A stretch of DNA of 64,000 nucleotides, from assembly GCA_963843555.1 (NCBI GenBank), contig CAWJKV010000003.1, forward strand, positions 229,800-293,799. Reading direction: 5' to 3'. Below, piece by piece: positions 1 to 10,227 of this stretch. Each line of letters starts with the position of its first letter. Positions within the stretch are counted from its first letter, which is position 1. This DNA comes from an uncultured Methanosarcinales archaeon (GTDB lineage: Archaea > Halobacteriota > Methanosarcinia > Methanotrichales > Methanotrichaceae). The position numbers were made by a program, and so were the translations under genes. The notes under the pieces are model-generated. The model searched no databases. It was given only the letters and a program-made list of their open reading frames with translations, and had not been told where the DNA came from.

Positions 1-1365
1 TTTGCGAATGTTGACAAGAAAATTAAGATAGACGGCCTGCAGAGGACATATGTGCACGGCAGCGGCGATATTGCCCTTGAGGAGAGCATAGGTGAGGAAG
101 CTAACAGCATCGAAAAGAGCATAAGCCTAACTTATAAGCCCATAGAATTTGCCGTCAATCCAGAAAATTCTCTCAATCTATCCTCCAAATGGAGTGAAGG
201 AGTATCATCTCAGACAGAGAATAATATCCTGCTGAGCGAGAGCTTTACAGACCTGGTGCTCATGGATAAGGAGACGAAGGTCTCAGATCTGACCAATGCC
301 GAAACAAGAGTCAACTTCACTGGCAGAGGAGAATTCGTAGTTGCGGGAGACAACTATACTCTGGATGATGTCTACATAGGCAACTACAGCGTGGCAAGAA
401 AGGTAGCCATCGTCCAGCTTCCCAAATACGATAAGCCTCACGTAACAGTGACTAAACAGCTCTACATAGATCGCGCAAACTGCAAAATAGCCGATTACAA
501 CATAACTATAACGAATGATGGCAATACGGCGCTCGGGCCGGTCTTTATCAGAGACACCTTCCCAACAGGTACATCCTTCCTGGGATCGTCAAGGCCGCCC
601 ATTGAACTGACCACCAGAATTGCGAACTGGTCCATAGAAGATCTTTACCCCGGCGAAATAGAGCACATCCGGCTCAAGCTAAAGATCGAAAAAGAGGTCG
701 ATAAGCTGACCAACCGTGTGAGGGCTACGGCCTATTACGTGGATGCGAGCAATAAACTCACCAGGACAACCTCGAATTACAACTCAACCGTCTTGCTTGA
801 CAAGAACATATGCATGCCAGGAAAGCTATCTGTAGCCACGACATCCACCCTGGATAAGAAAGGCACTGGCATTATACGCTTCAGGTCGACGGTAGAGAAC
901 CTGGCGGATTACAATGTGAGTGTGAACCTCACCAGTTATCTTCCTGAAGGTGCCTCCTTCCTGAACTCAACGCCGAAAACTAAAATTATAGGCGACGGTA
1001 ATGTCACCTGGTCGTTCAAACTGGCCACAGGGAAGAAGAGATCCATAACCTATTATGTGCAATATAATGAGAGCGGCCTTATTGAGAGCAGAGCAGTAGC
1101 ACACGCCGTTTCAGCAGAAGGGTACGAGAATTTGACCGCAGAAACCAGCGCATCGGTATTAATTCCTGAACCCAAGGCCATCTATGTGGATAGAATTATC
1201 GATGACTGGCTGCCGGAGGATTTATCCGATCCGCTGTTGCCGGCGTGCGGATCCGACGACGGACAATGCCTGTTGGTACCATCTGAAAATACAATTTTAT
1301 ATCCAGCGCCTATAAGAATCGTGCCGCCCTCACCTGGGTACAGCAGTGAATTATCATGCTGCTGA
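1..1365 (+). CDS. DUF11-like Ig-fold repeat surface protein (5' end outside window)
   Basis: Frame is open from base 1. Two DUF11-type modules (YNITITNDGNTALGPVFIRDTFPTG...; FRSTVENLADYNVSVNLTSYLPEGASF...) and many NxS/T sequons; ends in LSCC. Confidence 0.7.
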   Translation, partial: FANVDKKIKIDGLQRTYVHGSGDIALEESIGEEANSIEKSISLTYKPIEFAVNPENSLNLSSKWSEGVSSQTENNILLSESFTDLVLMDKETKVSDLTNAETRVNFTGRGEFVVAGDNYTLDDVYIGNYSVARKVAIVQLPKYDKPHVTVTKQLYIDRANCKIADYNITITNDGNTALGPVFIRDTFPTGTSFLGSSRPPIELTTRIANWSIEDLYPGEIEHIRLKLKIEKEVDKLTNRVRATAYYVDASNKLTRTTSNYNSTVLLDKNICMPGKLSVATTSTLDKKGTGIIRFRSTVENLADYNVSVNLTSYLPEGASFLNSTPKTKIIGDGNVTWSFKLATGKKRSITYYVQYNESGLIESRAVAHAVSAEGYENLTAETSASVLIPEPKAIYVDRIIDDWLPEDLSDPLLPACGSDDGQCLLVPSENTILYPAPIRIVPPSPGYSSELSCC

Positions 1366-1374
1366 CATTCAATT

Positions 1375-2871
1375 TTAGTTAATATAATATTTTCCGCCCG
1401 TGAGATCGGTAAGGACAGGTGTTTGGCTGATGAAGCGGCCCCGAGACCATTTGATTGTATCATTGTATGCTTTGTCGAAACATTCCTGCAAGAGAACCTT
1501 TTTGTTTCTTGCCCTCTCTTCTTTAATGGCCTTAATTAAGTTTGAGGTGAATATGCTCAAGGAACCGGTCCATTCCTCATTGCTGGATTCGTTATACCTG
1601 GAAGAAGCTAATATGAGCTGACCTTCTCCTATTGCCGGGCTCAAGCCTTCACTATTGCAGGCATCGATAATCACTGCCAGGTTTTTAAGATCCTTTATTT
1701 GCTGCTTGAGTTCATACTCGCTGATATAAGATGATATACTGCCATCAGCATCCTGGGGGATCAGATAGAAGGTGTCATTGTTGGCCCTAATTCCATGTCC
1801 TGAAAAGTAAAAGATAACATTTCCTAATTCCGTCTCATCTTTGATCTCTTTTAAGGCCACCTCCAGGATGTTGCGTTTTGTCGGCTTTCTTTCCGTTTGG
1901 TCGCTGAGCAAAACTACCGTATATCCAAGCGTGCTCATGAGGTCTGCGACCGATCTGGCATCATTAGCGCATGTATGCAAGCTCATTCGATCTTTGTATT
2001 CGTCGATTCCCACAATAATCGCATAGTTCTTGGAGTTCCTCGTCTCTTTCTTTAGATTTGGGAGCTTTTCCGGAATATATGTAAAATCGGTGCTCGAAAG
2101 ACTGCTGATAGAAAACGGATCAACTGGGTCCAAAGTTGGACGAGATGGGTTTCCGTCAGCCAGACTCCTCGTCGCGGAGGGGGCACCTCCAGTGGTAGCC
2201 CCCAATAGTTCCAAGAAAAGTTCCCCACCTGATAGATGACTGCGAAGAGATGTGCTGGTCTTAAGCTCATTATTTTCTGTAATATTTGAATAAGGCACAA
2301 CATTCTTGATCCAATCCAGGGAATTCTCAGCCATTGAATGATCCTGATATGAGGTTTGATGCTCATCATCAGGCTTGCGGAATTGATAACCGAAGTCTAT
2401 TCTATCCTGTATTGCCCTATCTTTTTCATATATATATTTTAATCCTGCTGCACTCGCCTCCAGATCTCCGCCACGTTCTTCTATCTCGAATACATTATTA
2501 TCTATAGTCGACAAGAACTCGTTTGACCGGCCAGGATCATAGCGGCCAACATCATAGAATTGAATACCACTATTATGTTCGGGTATCTCTTTCATAATCG
2601 ATTCCTTTTTCAGGAATATCTCCGAGTCGAAGACTGTGAGGTTCTCAGAAAAGGAATGGCGATCTGAGAAATCCTGTTTCTGCAACGATGCAAGTCTATC
2701 CCATTCAATATTTAATTGTTCTTTAGGTATGGAAAGGGGCTCATTGGAACTTTCAGCTTCTGCCAGTATCTTTAGATAATTTTCAGTCCTGGTTACAGGA
2801 TCTGGCACAGCCCCAGCTAAAGACGCAATTAAAATGAAGAGCAGCAGGATGCTGGGATACTTCGCATTCAA
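1375..2871 (-). CDS. Secreted caspase-family (peptidase C14, metacaspase-like) protease
   Basis: Signal peptide MNAKYPSILLLFILIASLAGA. C-terminal C14 domain: YAIIVGIDEY..L....NDA, catalytic FYFSGHG and IIDACNS, then p10-like LILASS..ESS..SIFTSNLIKAI. Confidence 0.9.
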   Translation of the reverse strand: MNAKYPSILLLFILIASLAGAVPDPVTRTENYLKILAEAESSNEPLSIPKEQLNIEWDRLASLQKQDFSDRHSFSENLTVFDSEIFLKKESIMKEIPEHNSGIQFYDVGRYDPGRSNEFLSTIDNNVFEIEERGGDLEASAAGLKYIYEKDRAIQDRIDFGYQFRKPDDEHQTSYQDHSMAENSLDWIKNVVPYSNITENNELKTSTSLRSHLSGGELFLELLGATTGGAPSATRSLADGNPSRPTLDPVDPFSISSLSSTDFTYIPEKLPNLKKETRNSKNYAIIVGIDEYKDRMSLHTCANDARSVADLMSTLGYTVVLLSDQTERKPTKRNILEVALKEIKDETELGNVIFYFSGHGIRANNDTFYLIPQDADGSISSYISEYELKQQIKDLKNLAVIIDACNSEGLSPAIGEGQLILASSRYNESSNEEWTGSLSIFTSNLIKAIKEERARNKKVLLQECFDKAYNDTIKWSRGRFISQTPVLTDLTGGKYYIN

Positions 2872-3108
2872 CTACATCACAGTCTATTTATCGATTTGTT
2901 ACAATCTTCGCATAATCCTATATATAAAAGATCCATATTTTTTGTACTTAGTGGCATTACTTATCATTCTTTCCGAGATGCAACTCTTACGCTTGATTCC
3001 TATCCCTTTAATAAATTACAGGGATATGTTAATAGTAGACCTGCCTGGAGAGGGCAAATTTCCTTTCCAAGGATTGGGGAAGAATTACATAAAGGAGGCA
3101 AAAAAGCA

Positions 3109-3780
3109 ATGTTGAAATATATTGGAGTATTGATGCTGGTTCTCCTGGCAATGGGAGCCGCTAGCGCACAGCCAAAGGTTTGCGATGTATGCTATGCAAA
3201 CATCATCACCCAAACAGATACCCAAACCATCGAAAACGTGAAACTTGGGATGTCTGATGTCGGCAAGGAAACCGTTGGCGTCGTAAATGAAGGTCTGTCC
3301 GCTGCTATCATAGTTACACCTCCCTACGAGGACAATGAAACCGGCAGTATGTTCGCGGTCGCTGGCTTCGCGAGAATCGACCAGGCCATGACCCAGACCA
3401 TCAACGGACTTGGAACCGATGACCCAGCACTCATTGAACTTGGTGCAGAGGGTGCAAAGGGCCTCGTACTTAACAAGGCTATTCAGGCTGCCTGGATCAC
3501 CAATCAGGGCCTTAAAGAGAGAGAGAATCTCACCTGGGTAAAAGAGGGCGCCTACATCGGTCAGACCACGAACCAGAATGTCAAGAATGTATGGGATTTC
3601 GACAGCCGCGAGGGAGCCAAGATTCTGAACCTCGACAACAAGGTAGCCTTGATTGTTGATGATCTGAACACAGTTATTAACCTCACCGCCAGCGCAGATT
3701 CCGACACAACCGACAATGCGACCTCTTCCGGAAACTTCTACGATGATGTTAACATCACCGTTGCCGCAAAGGATCCTTAG
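3109..3780 (+). CDS. Secreted protein with three imperfect Q/N-patterned beta-repeats (putative fibre/amyloid subunit)
   Basis: AGGAGG RBS upstream of ATG 3109; signal peptide MLKYIGVLMLVLLAMGAASA; repeats I-x-Q-x3-Q-x-(I/V) and N-x5-A-x-I. Confidence 0.75.
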   Translation: MLKYIGVLMLVLLAMGAASAQPKVCDVCYANIITQTDTQTIENVKLGMSDVGKETVGVVNEGLSAAIIVTPPYEDNETGSMFAVAGFARIDQAMTQTINGLGTDDPALIELGAEGAKGLVLNKAIQAAWITNQGLKERENLTWVKEGAYIGQTTNQNVKNVWDFDSREGAKILNLDNKVALIVDDLNTVINLTASADSDTTDNATSSGNFYDDVNITVAAKDP

Positions 3781-3830
3781 AGAACTGGTTAGTCGCTGAA
3801 ACGCCATAAAGAATAAAAAAAAGCAGGTGG

Positions 3831-3862
3831 ATAAGGCGCAGGCATGAAAACCCGCGCCTTAT
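3831..3862 (+). terminator. Stem-loop downstream of the 3109-3780 gene (terminator or mRNA-stabilising hairpin)
   Basis: ataaggcgc (3831-3839) pairs with gcgccttat (3854-3862). Confidence 0.45.
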
Positions 3863-3875
3863 TCCCAAATATTAT

Positions 3876-4782
3876 TTGATGATTATGTCTCAGATTGCCA
3901 GAGTTTCCAGATCGTATCCCTTGTTGATAACGATCGTTGTTCTATTGATGAGTCTATCATTAGAAACTAGCTTATGCCAGGTTCCTGATAACAATACTGC
4001 AGACTATAAATTAGAGAACGTCACACCTACCCAGATTCTCGAAGATCAAAAGATAATATCAGACGAAATTAATCCGTCCAATATAAAATTTGTCACCACC
4101 CGGGATTCATATCAGTTGTCCTCGTTTAGCAACCTCCCTAAAATGGGTTTGTTCAGCAATTTGAATACGTCACTAATGTCGACAGAAGATGGTTGGAAAA
4201 GATCGCGCCAATTTAGCGTGTTTTCCTACGGATCAGAATTGATGGAGCTAAGTGAGTTCTCATGGATGAAGAGTGAAGGGTTTAATAGTGAAGACGAGCT
4301 AGAAAGTTTTATACGAAGGGGGTTATGACCGATCGGCCACCCTTAAGGATGCCTCATATCCCTTTGTTGCTATTAGAGAAGATCTCGCAGAGCTATCAGA
4401 TGCACTAACCCTGGTGAACTCAACTTCAAAAATTTGTTATATATTATTTGATGATCCCTTATTAAACTATGATATTACCGCCCTGAACAGGGCTTTTGGA
4501 AATTCGAGCCAGTTCGAAACGTTTAAATACAATCCAAATTATGATCCAGAAATGGCTAATTTAACCAGAACATCAGGACTCGACTTGAGTTTGTTCTTAA
4601 ATGACGATATATGGGCACAATTTGGGTCGATATTTAATAACAAAGAGATCATGAAATTGTTTCACGATGCGGCATTGAAACAACGAGACGGGAATAACCA
4701 GCCACCTAATACAGAAAGATCGCGACATTGGTTTGAGGAATCAGACGGCGGAGTATACTGCAGATGGGGTGCCACACCATAA
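3876..4782 (+). CDS. Secreted hypothetical protein, probably one gene split by an indel in a G-run at about 4318-4322
   Basis: Signal-like N-terminus (LLITIVVLLMSLSLETSLC). Removing one G joins ORF 3876-4328 to the open frame GYDRSATLKDASY... that leads into ORF 4414-4782. Confidence 0.55.
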
Positions 4783-4808
4783 ATTGCCATGAAAAAGAAC
4801 GTGTGTAC

Positions 4809-5354
4809 ATGAAGTTCTTTTATTTATATATCTGTATCTTATTCGCAATCGTTACATCCACAGCCGTAGCAGATGAGTCAACTCTGGGGTCATTTTCCGA
4901 GAATGAGAGTTCAGGGAATATGTTGCTTGCCAATGATACTGGAAAGCTAATAAACGAATCAAGATCGATTCTCGAGGGGTTGGAGTCGTCGAATGCACCC
5001 TCCAAAGGAGGAAAGCTATTCGTGATAGGCGAGGTTGCCCTATCTCTGGCCTCGAAAAATCTGGATAGACTGTCCAACGATCCGGCTTTAAAGATCGAAA
5101 CCGGAGAATTCACGGAGCTGTACAGCGAAATGAGTTCTGCCTTCGGAATAAAAAAAATTCCTATTCAATTCATCAAGTACGAACCCCAGGAAAGACAAAT
5201 ATCCATAGATAATAACTTTTCTTCAGAAATCGGGCCTATTAACATCATAATTCAGGATCAACTTGAACCAAATCCTACCACGTTTTTTATGTATGATATT
5301 TCAAATGGGCACAGAGAAGCCTCCGGTGGAGTTGAAGTTATATGGGATTATTAG
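4809..5354 (+). CDS. Secreted hypothetical protein
   Basis: Signal peptide MKFFYLYICILFAIVTSTAVA; operon-like spacing. Confidence 0.65.
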   Translation: MKFFYLYICILFAIVTSTAVADESTLGSFSENESSGNMLLANDTGKLINESRSILEGLESSNAPSKGGKLFVIGEVALSLASKNLDRLSNDPALKIETGEFTELYSEMSSAFGIKKIPIQFIKYEPQERQISIDNNFSSEIGPINIIIQDQLEPNPTTFFMYDISNGHREASGGVEVIWDY

Positions 5355-5365
5355 GATGCTTGCCA

Positions 5366-6250
5366 ATGATGCAGGATCTCAGGGTGCAGGTGCTGGTCAT
5401 GGTCCTGATATTTGCCATCTCCATTGCGTCGGGTGACGTCAGTCTTCAGAACAGCTATTATACCACAGGCAGCGATAGCCGCGAACAAATATACTTGCAT
5501 GAAATGGATTATTCAAATTCAGCGAGTGTTTCTTCAATCTCGTATTATGCCAGTTCACAAGCCAGTCCTGCGAATCAATCCAAGGATAGCAGTTTTGAAG
5601 ATGCTGCCTATATGCATTCAATTGATGGAGCGCAAGGTGCAAGCCTTAAAATCGATGCTGAGGATCCGGAATACTCTCGATCGATAAGTGGCGGCGAATC
5701 CAATTCAATAACGTTCTCCTATTCTAATGGACCTGGCATTGTCCAGGCGGATTACTTTACGCCTTCTACTAAATATAGCGAAGACATTTCCCTTATCAAT
5801 AGCACATATTATGCTGACTTTGGCGTATACGATTCAAATTCGCATTCCTATGGGATCGGAGACTCTATGGGCGATAATCAGAGCAGCTTTAAACAAGATA
5901 TTTATATGGCGTTTTCGGATAAATTTTGTAGCATAAAAACTGTCTTGAACACAGGTAGTAAAAACAACGGAACCAATCCAGTGAATTACACCTGGGATGC
6001 CTTCAGCGGTCAGAGGCAATATGCTTATGCTGGGACAAATCTGCAAGTCTTTCCAGGTAATAGAACCGTCGAATTCTGGATTGATGGCACAAGCTCTATA
6101 TTGGAGGATAAATTTTCCCCGGACAAGAAAAATGATACATATCCTGCCAAATTCGATAAGGATGGATATTTAGTATTAAAAAATAATAGTTTGACACGAG
6201 TATCAAGCAAGACCATCCTCATGCAGTATCGGCTGAACCAAACAAGCTAG
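5366..6250 (+). CDS. Secreted Ser/Tyr/Asn-rich beta-strand protein
   Basis: Signal peptide (VQVLVMVLIFAISIASG), many NxS/T sequons, alternating polar/hydrophobic pattern. Confidence 0.7.
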   Translation: MMQDLRVQVLVMVLIFAISIASGDVSLQNSYYTTGSDSREQIYLHEMDYSNSASVSSISYYASSQASPANQSKDSSFEDAAYMHSIDGAQGASLKIDAEDPEYSRSISGGESNSITFSYSNGPGIVQADYFTPSTKYSEDISLINSTYYADFGVYDSNSHSYGIGDSMGDNQSSFKQDIYMAFSDKFCSIKTVLNTGSKNNGTNPVNYTWDAFSGQRQYAYAGTNLQVFPGNRTVEFWIDGTSSILEDKFSPDKKNDTYPAKFDKDGYLVLKNNSLTRVSSKTILMQYRLNQTS

Positions 6251-6506
6251 ATGTGATAATTCTTTAAATCAAATTTGGCGTGCTGCCCTGCCCCGCCTGA
6301 GAATAAGGTATGATCGGGCGCACACCCAGTTTTCAGGAACTCAGCAGGCCTCGAGTCTTCGTTTGCCCAGATCCCCTTGAATCACATCTTAGCCATAGGT
6401 GGATGGCACCGTCTGTGGCTTAGGTGCGAAATAACAACCACATTTTTTTGAAAAGATGAATGGTTTGTAGATCTCGGATAGCGTAAAAGAACGTGGGGGG
6501 AGAGGG

Positions 6507-7481
6507 TCATGATGTAATAATTCTCACGCAATAGTCTTCCACCTCTCCATCGGGTGCCAGCCCGTCGAAGGACAATCCTTTTTCACTGCTGAAGCGGAAA
6601 CGGGAATAGGTATCGCCTTGCAACGCCTTTGCCGGAACAATAAAGGAAACATGATTGATGCCGATATCCAGGTCCAGGTCGGAGAAGATCTTCTCCTCCC
6701 CGTCGGCCCAATCGCCATCTCCGTTAAAATCCATCCAGGCATTCAGAAAACCAGGGCATGAAGCAGTTATTTCGATGAGAGCCTTCGCTCCAGGATGGAG
6801 GGGCCCTGCAAAAGCGACGCCGTCTTCGTCATCAGTCTCATTGATATCATCCCCTGCAGCATTTGCGTGCGGCTGTCCATCCAATTCGGCATCAATTTTT
6901 TTGCCTATATAAATGCCGGGCACGATCAGATGTCTCGCACCCCGGGAAGCCAGAAGCGTGTGATACTGCGGATCCGGGGCATCCCCGAAGTCCCACTTTC
7001 CTTCAGTTAGAATTATGGTATATTCGTAAAGTTCGGTGTCATTTATTGTTCTCAGTTCGTGGGGCTCTTCTAGCGTCTCATTCGATAAGTCACCCGACCT
7101 TTCACTTATTAATGGAAAATTCATTTTGCAGAAGACTATTCCTGGTTTATCATCATCTTTGCTTCTGATTTCATCAACGACTTTAATGATATCTTCAGGG
7201 ATGTTGCTCTCTGTCACTACCGGACCACTAACTTCTATTATCGCCATTTCGCTGATATCCAAATCATTCACTCCAGCCTCTTGCACTATGTGTTGGACTA
7301 TGAAGACGTCATCATAAGGGGCACCTGCTACCTGTATGCTATTTTGCAGACCAGGAGAAACGTCATTTGCACTCACTTCCTGGCTGATGCTCTGCATGAT
7401 CCAGCTCCCGGTTGCCAGTGGCATTGCGAGACAAAATAATATGAACGCAGCACACAATATTGATCTAATGGTGAACCTCAT
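6507..7481 (-). CDS. Secreted GEVED-domain protein with N-terminal Q-patterned repeats
   Basis: Signal peptide MRFTIRSILCAAFILFCLAMPLATG; DFGDAP..Y.TL, DEDGV, AWMDFNGDGDW, RFRFSS and DGEVEDY motifs. Confidence 0.8.
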   Translation of the reverse strand: MRFTIRSILCAAFILFCLAMPLATGSWIMQSISQEVSANDVSPGLQNSIQVAGAPYDDVFIVQHIVQEAGVNDLDISEMAIIEVSGPVVTESNIPEDIIKVVDEIRSKDDDKPGIVFCKMNFPLISERSGDLSNETLEEPHELRTINDTELYEYTIILTEGKWDFGDAPDPQYHTLLASRGARHLIVPGIYIGKKIDAELDGQPHANAAGDDINETDDEDGVAFAGPLHPGAKALIEITASCPGFLNAWMDFNGDGDWADGEEKIFSDLDLDIGINHVSFIVPAKALQGDTYSRFRFSSEKGLSFDGLAPDGEVEDYCVRIITS

Positions 7482-7726
7482 TTGGATAATCCTCTGGAGG
7501 ATGATAATTTTTTGGGGATACATTTACTATGATGAGAGATCTTTTTGGCGTATAAATGGTACGGAATATTGAGACCTGAGATGTGATCAATATTTCGGAT
7601 CAGTAATTGGTATGTCTTATCAAATCGCACCATCATTCTAATAGAAAGGAATTTAACGAGGAGCAGCCCAATTTATCTAGAAATTGGCGTCATAAAGCAA
7701 TATTAAGAAAGCAAGGACGATGATAT

Positions 7727-8716
7727 ATGTCAGAACTCAAATTGATAGCCGGGAGCAATATACGGGCGTTTTGCATAATTATAATAGCGATGACTATCCT
7801 TTGTGCATCTGCAAGCGCTGAATGCTCTCCCTGCACCTTTGTGAATAATTGGATAAAGGAAACGATCAACAGGATCCTTCCAGGTGATTCCCAACCTGAC
7901 AAGGAGATGACTTTTGCAGCCAGTTCAGAGATCTTGGAGGTAAAATCGGCTACACCAGAGAGTTCCTCTCAGAGCGAATTGGCCAATGACATGCTGGTGC
8001 CTGTTTCCGGAGTCGGCAAAGATGACATAATCCTCGATGTAAGCGAAAATACAAAATCCTACATACCCGGTGCAATTCATATTTCGTATGTGAATTTTAT
8101 AGATAATAACAATACAGCTCAGATCAAGACTCTGCCGGAAATTGCCAAGATCCTGGGAGATGCAGGCATTGGAAGCAGCGATTCTGTGGTCGTATACGGC
8201 GAATGTAAGCCCTGTGGGGGAGGGCCCTCGGCAACATCCTATGTTTACTGGCTGCTTCGCTACATCGGCCACGATAAAGTCAAAGTGCTGGATGGTGGGA
8301 TCGATGCCTGGACTGGGGCAGGAATGCCCGTTGAGAATTCTTCGTCTGTCAGGCCGGCCACAACTTATTCACCCTCTCTGAGACCGGAACTGTATGCGAC
8401 ATATGATTATGTCAAGAGCGGGGCCGCTCAGATAGTTGATGCCAGGTCCGCCCGGGAGTTCGAGTCCAGAACGATACCTGGTGCCATCAACATTCCCTAC
8501 GATGAGGTATTGAAAGGAAAGATGTTCAAGGATAGGGCCGGGATTGAGGATGTCTTCCGCAATTTGACGAGCGATAAACCTGTGGTTGTATTTACCACGA
8601 CGGGCACCAAAGCGTCCCTGGCATGGTTCGCTCTTATGATGACGGGCCATGATGCCAAGATGTACACATGGCGCGATTGGATCAAGAGCAATAGTACGAG
8701 GACGAGCACAGGATGA
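7727..8716 (+). CDS. Tandem rhodanese (sulfurtransferase-like) protein with signal peptide
   Basis: YIPGAIHI, VKVLDGGIDAW, IVDARSAREF..TIPGAINIP motifs; hydrophobic N-terminus ending ASA. Confidence 0.85.
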   Translation: MSELKLIAGSNIRAFCIIIIAMTILCASASAECSPCTFVNNWIKETINRILPGDSQPDKEMTFAASSEILEVKSATPESSSQSELANDMLVPVSGVGKDDIILDVSENTKSYIPGAIHISYVNFIDNNNTAQIKTLPEIAKILGDAGIGSSDSVVVYGECKPCGGGPSATSYVYWLLRYIGHDKVKVLDGGIDAWTGAGMPVENSSSVRPATTYSPSLRPELYATYDYVKSGAAQIVDARSAREFESRTIPGAINIPYDEVLKGKMFKDRAGIEDVFRNLTSDKPVVVFTTTGTKASLAWFALMMTGHDAKMYTWRDWIKSNSTRTSTG

Positions 8717-8826: not shown

Positions 8827-10227
8827 ATGAGAATTATTTCAGCGGAAGAGATGCAGGCCCTTGATTCTAATTGCAGGTATTTTGGCCTGCTTCCTCTCCA
8901 GCTCATGGAGAATGCAGGTGCGGCTTTAGCTCGCGAGGTGATGGGGCAAAGATCGGGAAAGAGGATCAAAATTGTCGCCGGCCGGGGCAATAACGGCGGC
9001 GATGCCTTCGTCGCCGCGCGCCATCTGGTCGGCCTCGATGTAACGGTCTATCTTCTGGGCCGTATCCCGGGATATCATCCACAGAAGAGGCGAAGAGGAA
9101 CTGGGAAATTCTGGAGAAGATGGACTACGATCTGCAGGAGATAAAGGACCCCATGGATATGTCGTTGGGGGAATGCGACCTGATCGTAGATGCCATTTTC
9201 GGAACGGGCGTGCGAGGCAGCGTCAAGGGACTGGAGGCCGGGGCAATCGATGCCATCAACTCCTCAGGAAAAACCGTGATCTCTGTGGATGTTCCGAGCG
9301 GTCTGGGCACCAATAAGGTCGTGCGGGCTGATGTTGTCGTAACATTTCACCGGCCCAAGCCCGATATGACCGGCAATGTCGTGGTTGCGGATATAGGCAT
9401 ACCACCTAGCGCGGAGTTCTTTGTGGGACCGGGCGATCTATGGCTGATGGGAAAAAGGACTCCCGGAGAGCCACAAGGGAGACAGCGGCAGGATTCTGGT
9501 AATTGGCGGCGGGCCATACACCGGCGCTCCGGCACTCTCGGCCCTGGCGGCTCTGCGGGCCGGAGCGGACATTGTCACTGTGGCCGCGCCCAGGACTGCA
9601 GCCAGGACCATCTCAGGCTATTCTCCCAACTTGATCGTTCAGGAGCTGTCGGCAGATCACCTCTGTCCTGAAGACATGACAGTTCTCAAGGAGCAGATCG
9701 CCAGGCATGATGTGGTGGTCATGGGCATGGGACTGGGAAGGCATCCGGAGACGATGGCAGCATTGGCCCAGATAATTCCTCTCGGCCAAGAAGTCGTCAT
9801 CGATGCCGATGCCCTGCAGCCGGATCTTCCTCTGAAGGGCATTGTGACGCCTCATGCAGGCGAGTTTAAGAGAATCAGCGGCATCTCTCTGGTCGATCTG
9901 GACTACCGGGAGCGAGTAGAGCCGCTGAAGGGCTATGCCCGCGAGAAGGGTCTGGTGGTTCTGCTCAAGGGGAAGGTCGATCTGATCTCGGATGGAGAGG
10001 TGGTGCGGGCCAATACCACAGGAAATCCAGGCATGACCGTTGGCGGAACGGGAGACGTTCTGGCCGGAGTTACAGCCGCTTTTTACGCTCGAACCTCCGC
10101 CCTACGGGCCGCGACTGCTGCAGCATTCGTCAACGGAAGGGCAGGCGATCTGGTCTACACGGAATTGGACTTTGGCATGGTGGCCACCGATGTGATCGAG
10201 AAGATTCCCCAGGCAATGAGGCTGTGA
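8827..10227 (+). CDS. nnr: Bifunctional NAD(P)H-hydrate epimerase/dehydratase (frameshifted)
   Basis: LMENAG, GRGNNGGD, DAIFGTG, VDVPSG, VIDADAL, TPHAGEF and GGTGDVLAG motifs across three ORFs. Confidence 0.9.

Follow-up and report, generated by a model that had tools for sequence, protein, structure and literature searches.

A family-wide cassette of secreted proteins in Methanotrichaceae with a linked caspase: a candidate locus for curli/Fap-like surface fibres

We analyzed a 64,000-nucleotide stretch (the window; C3:229800-293799 of genome G000) from an uncultured archaeon of the family Methanotrichaceae, whose genome assembly (GCA_963843555.1) comprises 2.68 Mb and is 82% complete. Where relatives of its proteins carry a name, they come from Methanothrix and Methanotrichaceae. 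The first 8,716 positions of the window carry a block of genes for secreted proteins. The genes at 1375-6250 belong to a conserved cassette of secreted proteins that occurs across the family, with a variable first gene (the slot gene) and a linked, intact caspase. We consider it slightly favored (roughly 55%) that these genes form the core of a cassette building an amyloid surface fibre comparable to curli and Fap, and such a fibre is likely separate from the sheath of these archaea. Fibre assembly, anchoring to the sheath and proteolytic maturation are what we infer for the cassette. Its members are as follows.

1375..2871, minus strand: secreted C14 caspase-like protease, 498 amino acids (Pfam E 7e-20, orthologue alignment, synteny)
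2872..3108, no strand: divergent control region, 237 bp (two AT-rich boxes and GGAGG)
3109..3780, plus strand: glutamine/asparagine (Q/N) repeat protein, class A slot gene, 223 amino acids (sequence relatives, repeats, model)
3885..4782, plus strand: g4, secreted protein, a single gene interrupted here by a frame change (relatives' loci, profile-profile match)
4809..5354, plus strand: g5, secreted, no known family (Pfam null, synteny)
5369..6250, plus strand: g6, secreted all-beta protein with internal duplication (model, fold search, synteny)
C3:222802, about 7 kb upstream of the window: X802, secreted protein probably resembling the SH sheath-protein family, conserved cassette member
C3:223634: X634, helical-looking secreted protein of no family, conserved cassette member

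The Q/N protein, the likely major subunit, comprises a signal peptide, a CxxC pair, three repeats and a C-terminal tail ending in DP. The motif [A/N]xIxQxxxQ stands at residues 31, 88 and 148 (a spacing of about 58 residues), each time with an N-led strand about 30 residues further on. The preliminary description of this DNA had called it a Q/N-repeat protein; the three conserved repeats bear this out, but its Q+N content is 13% and the repeats are visible as conserved columns, not as tandem copies. A sequence search returned 153 relatives, all unnamed or hypothetical where listed, and a profile search against 1.84 billion representatives gave 35 matches only. Among 31 diverse homologues, eight of the ten invariant columns are Q or N. 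At least two copies of the motif occur in 113 of 120 homologues compared with 0.01 per shuffled protein; since the motif was defined post hoc from the family itself, this control shows only that it is not compositional. One CxxC was present in 116 and a terminal DP in 94 of the 120 class A proteins. No Pfam or NCBIfam match was found, a PDB sequence search gave nothing meaningful, and a protein atlas held nothing for this protein or for a class B protein. Five N-x-S/T sequons (residues 76, 140, 191, 203 and 215, three of them within the C-terminal tail) indicate that the subunit may be glycosylated.

An AlphaFold2 model of the Q/N protein has six long strands, with a mean predicted local distance difference test score (pLDDT) of 70.8 and a predicted template modelling score of 0.61. 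In a fold search of 48,161 chains, 13 reached Z 2, every one a parallel beta-solenoid or roll; the best was FapC (Z 5.5, root-mean-square deviation [rmsd] 3.9, 94/150 aligned) and the second CsgA (Z 5.0, rmsd 7.4, 70 aligned). The protein is thus predicted to be a three-rung parallel beta-solenoid with one rung per repeat, unlike the globular, non-stacking fold that the preliminary description had named as counting against its proposal. The matches support topology, not kinship. A three-copy complex prediction scored 0.18, 0.38 and 0.07 against a mark of 0.42.

Synteny in relatives, the other point on which the preliminary description had staked its proposal, was examined in 105 genomes of the order Methanotrichales. 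A full Q/N gene was found in nine of these, all in one genus (59 genomes), and the order of a leftward caspase followed by rightward Q/N, g4, g5 and g6 was kept in 9/9; the divergent caspase, g4, g5 and g6 were each present at 8/8 of the other class A loci. Neither the predicted fold nor synteny thus refuted the earlier proposal. Four class A loci carry two to three tandem Q/N copies. Gene order in class A cassettes is retained while g6 identity drops to 33–49%.

The wider survey covered the DNA around 19 more caspase orthologues and 15 more g6 homologues. At 30 of 33 g6 loci a secreted slot gene precedes g6, and 24 of these slot genes are of Q/N type (nine class A, 15 class B), the rest being class C (four) and class D (two); two further loci end at a contig edge, and the last, L094, has no slot gene. 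Class B proteins are curli-like repeat proteins with 5.2 copies of [IVLA]xGxxN per protein versus 0.9 when shuffled (37 proteins); QxGxxN occurs in 8/37, and their length of 163 to 797 amino acids is set by repeat number. Class C slot proteins are small and Ala/Ser-rich. Class C and D proteins (for example L056:12021-14899, L066:12888-13799 and L071:10854-11732) are secreted and beta-rich, have no Pfam family, and stand where the major subunit would be, accompanied by a second gene of their own and by a g6 homologue. Some class A and class B members share both an N-terminal CxxC and a terminal DP. Because g4 and g6 homologues also stand behind curli-like proteins in other genera, we regard the cassette as family-wide with a swappable first gene. 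In most class B, C and D cassettes g6 is followed by X802 and often by X634, and the X802-X634 pair (L001:10803-12174; G000:C3:222802-224173) lies upstream at six of the eight other class A loci, the remaining two ending early.

The class B profile matched 36/105 genomes, spread over 15 of 16 genera; stand-alone copies and g6-free clusters are among the matches. The stand-alone curli-like repeat proteins are about 240 amino acids long, very regular and single-copy in several genera; curli-like loci at L098:9765-10493, L113:9464-10240, L107:9397-10116 and L108:5890-12290 include tandem clusters of up to five without g6. Outside the family, g6 was detected in 1/384 sampled genomes, on a short AT-rich contig of another order (L118:375-3246) with a curli-like protein ending in LDP, a second gene, a g6-like gene and an X802-like gene; the g6-like protein had no second genome among 94 of that order, and the occurrence may reflect transfer or a binning error. 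A 15-row tree of nnr, the gene beside the cassette, placed a class C genome as sister to a class A genome (98/94), suggesting cassette exchange at one site. No CsgE, CsgF or CsgG was found among the cassette genes. No description of the cassette was found in the literature searched, a scope that lay outside subscription papers and preprint supplements.

The preliminary description listed three secreted genes without assignment after the Q/N gene. The genes g4, g5 and g6 are all real, but g4, which reads as two open reading frames (ORFs; 3876-4328 and 4414-4782), is a single gene whose frame changes somewhere between about 4277 and 4312. In 8/8 related loci the gene is one ORF of 264–323 amino acids. 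Since nnr is likewise split, an assembly indel is the likely cause; among contigs from four DNA sequencing runs, none spans the break, and no RNA run was listed as a carrier. Fourteen second genes of class B cassettes, chosen by position alone, proved homologous to g4 (profile-profile probability 96.4%, E 1e-9, 116 columns). By the same comparison g5 showed no homology to these genes (probability 1.7%); it is confined to class A cassettes and the remnant locus L094. The most conserved gene of the cassette is g6, whose model (pLDDT 93.3) has about 20 strands and is internally duplicated. Its closest fold was LptA (Z 9.6, rmsd 3.7, 129/135 aligned), with LptH also matching (Z 8.9, rmsd 4.9, 132 aligned); Foldseek returned none at E<=0.001. 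It is predicted to be an LptA-like antiparallel beta-jellyroll, a fold that shows no function by itself. As an open-edged antiparallel sandwich, g6 could connect the antiparallel sheath to a parallel fibre; alternatively, it could protect subunits that are still unfolded.

The caspase consists of a signal segment, a variable N-terminal region of about 250 residues and then the catalytic domain, with a PF00656 match above the cut-off. SGHG lies at 1803-1792 and DAC at 1665-1657, and the His, Cys and Asn-Asp motif is invariant in 17/17 aligned orthologues (17 of 28 were aligned); the protease thus keeps its catalytic pair. Two invariant Asp residues suggest, by analogy with metacaspases, a preference for Arg or Lys. 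The gene diverges from the Q/N gene in 9/9 class A loci, across the region that had been put at about 240 bp and measures 237 bp. Nine aligned caspase-adjacent gaps conserve AT-rich boxes at about 2916-2938 and 2997-3022 and GGAGG at 3094-3098; we take the first box to be the likely caspase TATA box on the minus strand and the second that of the Q/N operon.

Caspase orthologues (E<1e-50) were present in 28/105 genomes: 21 genomes carry cassette and caspase, seven the cassette only, seven the caspase only and 70 neither, so that the caspase occurs in 21/28 cassette genomes versus 7/77 others. Cassette-bearing genomes were the 26 with g6 at E<1e-25 and two syntenic class D genomes, and seven with weaker, unchecked g6 matches were scored as cassette-free; related genomes are not independent in these counts, and many are incomplete. 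The caspase lies beside a slot gene, within the same stretch of DNA, at 19 loci in five genera, with all four slot classes. The protease proposed as dedicated to this locus is therefore of secreted type, catalytically intact by its residues, and linked to the cassette, but it is absent from seven of 28 cassette genomes and is a regular member, not an obligatory one. X634 is often its nearest fixed neighbor, so the caspase may act on something other than the slot protein; at loci with no slot gene in the stretch, too, X634 is often next to the caspase. A C-terminal DP as caspase sorting signal was considered and set aside, DP being confined to class A (94/120) and class B (7/37) and present in no other cassette family.

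Several results weigh against a fibre cassette. The Q/N model leaves residues 194-223 unmodelled; Foldseek ranks FapC first, yet with a best E of only 0.066, and the fold scores are middling, Z below 8 possibly reflecting merely a common arrangement. The Q/N protein has no sequence link to FapC or CsgA, with no Fap chain among 12 PDB matches (E<=10), and the curli repeat QxGxxN occurs in 0/120 class A proteins. Classes A and B can be aligned only in the signal peptide, CxxC and strand 1 (probability 68%; <=30% when trimmed), so that they may be analogues, and six cassettes have non-Q/N slot proteins (classes C and D). In the g6 tree all nine class A cassettes group as one clade (99/98) and thus represent one origin, not nine; this tree has 30 rows, with three short g6 pieces excluded and two slot-less rows labelled B by default. 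Locus L094 retains g5, g6 and the GEVED gene without a Q/N gene or caspase. The caspase is missing from seven cassette genomes, G001 and G003 (both 99% complete) among them, and seven caspase genomes lack the cassette. Position and fold are what suggest the roles of g4, g5, g6 and X802.

Among known systems, the nearest is Fap (Pseudomonas fapABCDEF). Both have a small secreted subunit with three imperfect Q/N repeats, predicted here to form one layer each, a linked cysteine protease and fixed small partner genes, and FapC is the top fold match. FapC may also have a CxxC, though none turned up in the passages searched. FapD is a C39 peptidase, whereas the cassette protease belongs to Peptidase_C14 and lies on the opposite strand outside the operon; PDB, Pfam and NCBIfam searches gave no sequence homology to FapB or FapC, and no FapF-type barrel was seen, g6, the one partner protein modelled, matching LptA best. 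In FapC each of three repeats forms one layer, shaped by Asn and Gln (in the portions available of PMC12392863 and PMC12459412), and Fap is reported only from Proteobacteria in the corresponding part of PMC3792158. Curli resemble the cassette in the AxIxQ strand motif of class A, in CsgA as second fold match and in the regularly spaced Q/N/G repeats of widely varying number in class B. They differ in that QxGxxN is missing from class A, that a hydrophobic residue mostly stands in place of that Q in class B, and that there is no Pfam curlin match. The curli and Fap surveys, as far as their text was accessible (PMC3521004, PMC3792158), concern bacteria, the 2012 survey mentioning one archaeal protein with curli-like repeats and giving no context. 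Compared with LptA and LptH, g6 shares the beta-jellyroll but is twice as long and 4–5% identical, and its host has no lipopolysaccharide. On present evidence the cassette would work like Fap or curli and is a member of neither.

MspA and MspB of Methanothrix thermoacetophila are likewise secreted envelope proteins from the same family of organisms, and MspA is amyloid-like. MspA (Mthe_1069; 575 amino acids, 60.9 kDa, 10.7% aromatic residues, among polysaccharide-export genes in the parts of PMC6242892 and PMC10470525 available) is set apart from the Q/N protein (223 amino acids, 5.4% aromatic) by size, composition and context. An equation of the slot with the mspA locus was rejected, Mthe_1061-1071 carrying iscA, sugar-export genes and a rhodanese gene. 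The word 'caspase' is absent from the available supplement file of the mspA study, which lists differentially expressed genes only, and a composition filter for an MspA-like gene in our genome yielded four unconvincing candidates.

The sheath was described, in the accessible parts of PMC11576556, as built from the SH family, with Ig-extended sheath adhesins, repeated cores and SH proteins in all Methanotrichales, an order reported to be wholly sheathed; the same parts give no conserved context for SH genes, deem the older MspA assignment mistaken and leave the plug proteins unknown. In the SH core, each of two sheets is made up of six antiparallel strands. A profile seeded on gene 1, the DUF11 gene at the start of the window, gathers a multi-copy family that includes the main sheath-type genes and matches, by eye, SH-like sequences in the supplement of PMC11576556 as far as seen. 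With two cores and Ig domains, gene 1 fits the sheath adhesins and, by its sequence, appears to be one of known type. The likely main sheath genes of this genome, near-identical paralogues, are at C5:115968-121324 (three genes), C14:43881-44609 and C11:66934-67753, and two of these groups lie near S-layer genes (including C11 at about 67 kb). Since the main sheath-type genes are on other contigs, the cassette is not the main sheath locus, one of the possibilities raised in the preliminary description; it also occurs in only 28 of the 105 genomes and was not found in several near-complete ones. The Q/N protein is not an SH protein: it has six strands, all its fold matches are parallel solenoids, and a profile of 27 sheath-type domains does not match it. 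None of the fold lists contained a sheath protein, and the data statement of the sheath paper names density maps only. X802 aligned with the sheath-type core (profile probability 82.9%, E 9e-6, 158 columns), resembles by eye one SH-like sequence in the available supplement of PMC11576556 and is probably SH-like; in having a conserved gene context it differs from the SH genes described there.

We consider it unlikely that the cassette makes an accessory to the sheath envelope, such as a surface coat, a cross-link or a reinforcement of the plugs, with its solenoids lying in or on the sheath via X802. The X802 alignment and the position of X802 after g6 in most class B, C and D cassettes speak for this, as do the antiparallel two-sheet fold of g6, which resembles the described sheath core, and the unknown plug proteins (PMC11576556, in part). 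It sits poorly with a cassette present in 28/105 genomes when SH proteins are reported in all Methanotrichales, and with a Q/N protein that the sheath-type profile does not match.

Equally improbable in our view is a monomeric or small-oligomer solenoid, an adhesin or surface-binding protein capped by its C-terminal helix and tail, within an island of variable adhesins (Ig, DUF11, GEVED, Big_9) and of proteases (caspase, matrixins) that shed or mature them. A helix at 186-194 does follow the last strand of the model, the non-amyloid SufB/SufD and RTX solenoids also match (Z 2–3.7), the low-GC (guanine plus cytosine) region is rich in adhesin-type and matrixin genes, the slot class varies between close relatives at one nnr-linked site, and the first rung is found elsewhere fused to an ordinary beta-helix protein. 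In-register invariant Gln and Asn, tandem small-subunit gene copies, a strong ribosome site and fixed small partner genes nevertheless fit a polymer better, and the range of class B (163–797 amino acids by repeat number) is comparable to curlin variation.

That an insertion hotspot beside nnr-moaC collected genes for unrelated secreted proteins, their order being inherited without common function, is very improbable and largely refuted already: class A is a single clade and the DUF11, rhodanese and Big_9 genes come and go, but the slot-g4-g6-X802 order is kept across many genera, also away from nnr, with several cassette copies per genome and one occurrence in another order of the phylum.

If the cassette builds a fibre, the Q/N subunit would be exported by Sec and its signal peptide removed, after which subunits would stack head to tail via Gln/Asn ladders, with CxxC possibly forming cross-links. 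Nucleator, chaperone and adaptor functions would fall to g4, g5 and g6, X802 would tie the fibre base into the sheath, and the divergent caspase would trim cassette proteins, as proposed for FapD, being dispensable in some lineages. A secreted beta-helix-type protein of 410–442 amino acids (L048:9842-11170, G000:C2:148841-150169; others at L047 and L049-L053) has the first rung of the Q/N protein at its start, and most copies include the CxxC. It sits away from the cassette, occurs also where no full Q/N gene was found, and may serve as a tip or cap subunit or be what is left of a fusion. In a bolder picture, which we hold as doubtful, this would be the first archaeal curli/Fap-type system. 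Its parallel beta-solenoid amyloid fibre would be rooted in the antiparallel amyloid sheath, with a protein of the SH family and an LptA-like adaptor as the link, and a secreted caspase would mature it. The major subunit would be exchangeable among four classes that look unrelated, and a shared first-rung module would load beta-helix proteins at the tip. Such a system would explain the family's unidentified fimbria-like filaments and have a bearing on how granules form and cells make contact in methanogenic consortia.

Relatives of Methanothrix make methane from acetate on a major scale, have no archaella and provide scaffolds for partner bacteria; we know of no surface fibre protein from them. 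The cassette supplies candidate subunits, partner proteins and a protease. If a fibre is confirmed, curli/Fap-type amyloid fibres would extend to archaea and a secreted prokaryotic caspase would gain a structural job. In 2023 thin appendages, the first for the family and of unknown nature, were reported on one Methanocrinis strain (PMC10598746, in part). The cassette would further give an SH-family gene the conserved context that the 2024 survey did not find.

The remaining genes of the block are as follows.

1..1365, plus strand: gene 1, 3' part of a 732-amino-acid secreted protein (Pfam DUF11, sheath-type profile)
6507..7523, minus strand: secreted GEVED-domain protein (Pfam, synteny)
7727..8716, plus strand: exported two-domain rhodanese (Pfam)

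All eight genes described earlier as secreted or surface proteins are present, each with a hydrophobic N-terminal segment (13-residue Kyte-Doolittle maximum 2.1–3.2, versus 0.1–0.8 in three housekeeping neighbors). This includes gene 1, which begins 833 nucleotides upstream of the window with a signal-type N-terminus and has two SH-type core domains, two DUF11 Ig domains and a terminal CC. The domain labels given earlier agree with Pfam (DUF11 E 5e-12, Peptidase_C14 7e-20, GEVED 1e-13, rhodanese 2e-22), which has no family for the Q/N gene, g4, g5 or g6. The proposal that all eight genes form one system is not supported. At the other class A loci the DUF11 gene adjoins the cassette in 2/8 and the rhodanese, with strong paralogues on C2, C5, C6 and C14, is present in 4/8; both are inconstant neighbors, not core parts, and the core is narrower and extends upstream. 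A GEVED-gene homologue follows g6 in 7/8 (one locus ends), twice without the GEVED half, an arrangement limited to class A. Large proteins of genomes that lack a Q/N gene also contain the domain, and the GEVED protein of the block is possibly an accessory.

The block was correctly described as AT-rich, with 44.6% GC compared with 53.3% in the rest of the window and 51.5% in the genome; equally low values occur in 16/1272 overlapping 8.7-kb genome windows. Frameshifts in this assembly reach even housekeeping genes: nnr (window 8827-10227) is in three ORFs and is a single ORF of about 465–500 amino acids in relatives, which we read as a sign of assembly indels. The secreted-gene block runs about 13.5 kb further upstream, beyond the window start. 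Upstream of class A cassettes lie secreted matrixin (M10) genes, two to three in tandem, together with adhesin-type Big_9 genes that are very rich in Cys; in this genome they are at L001:4280-9102 and L001:12452-16763.

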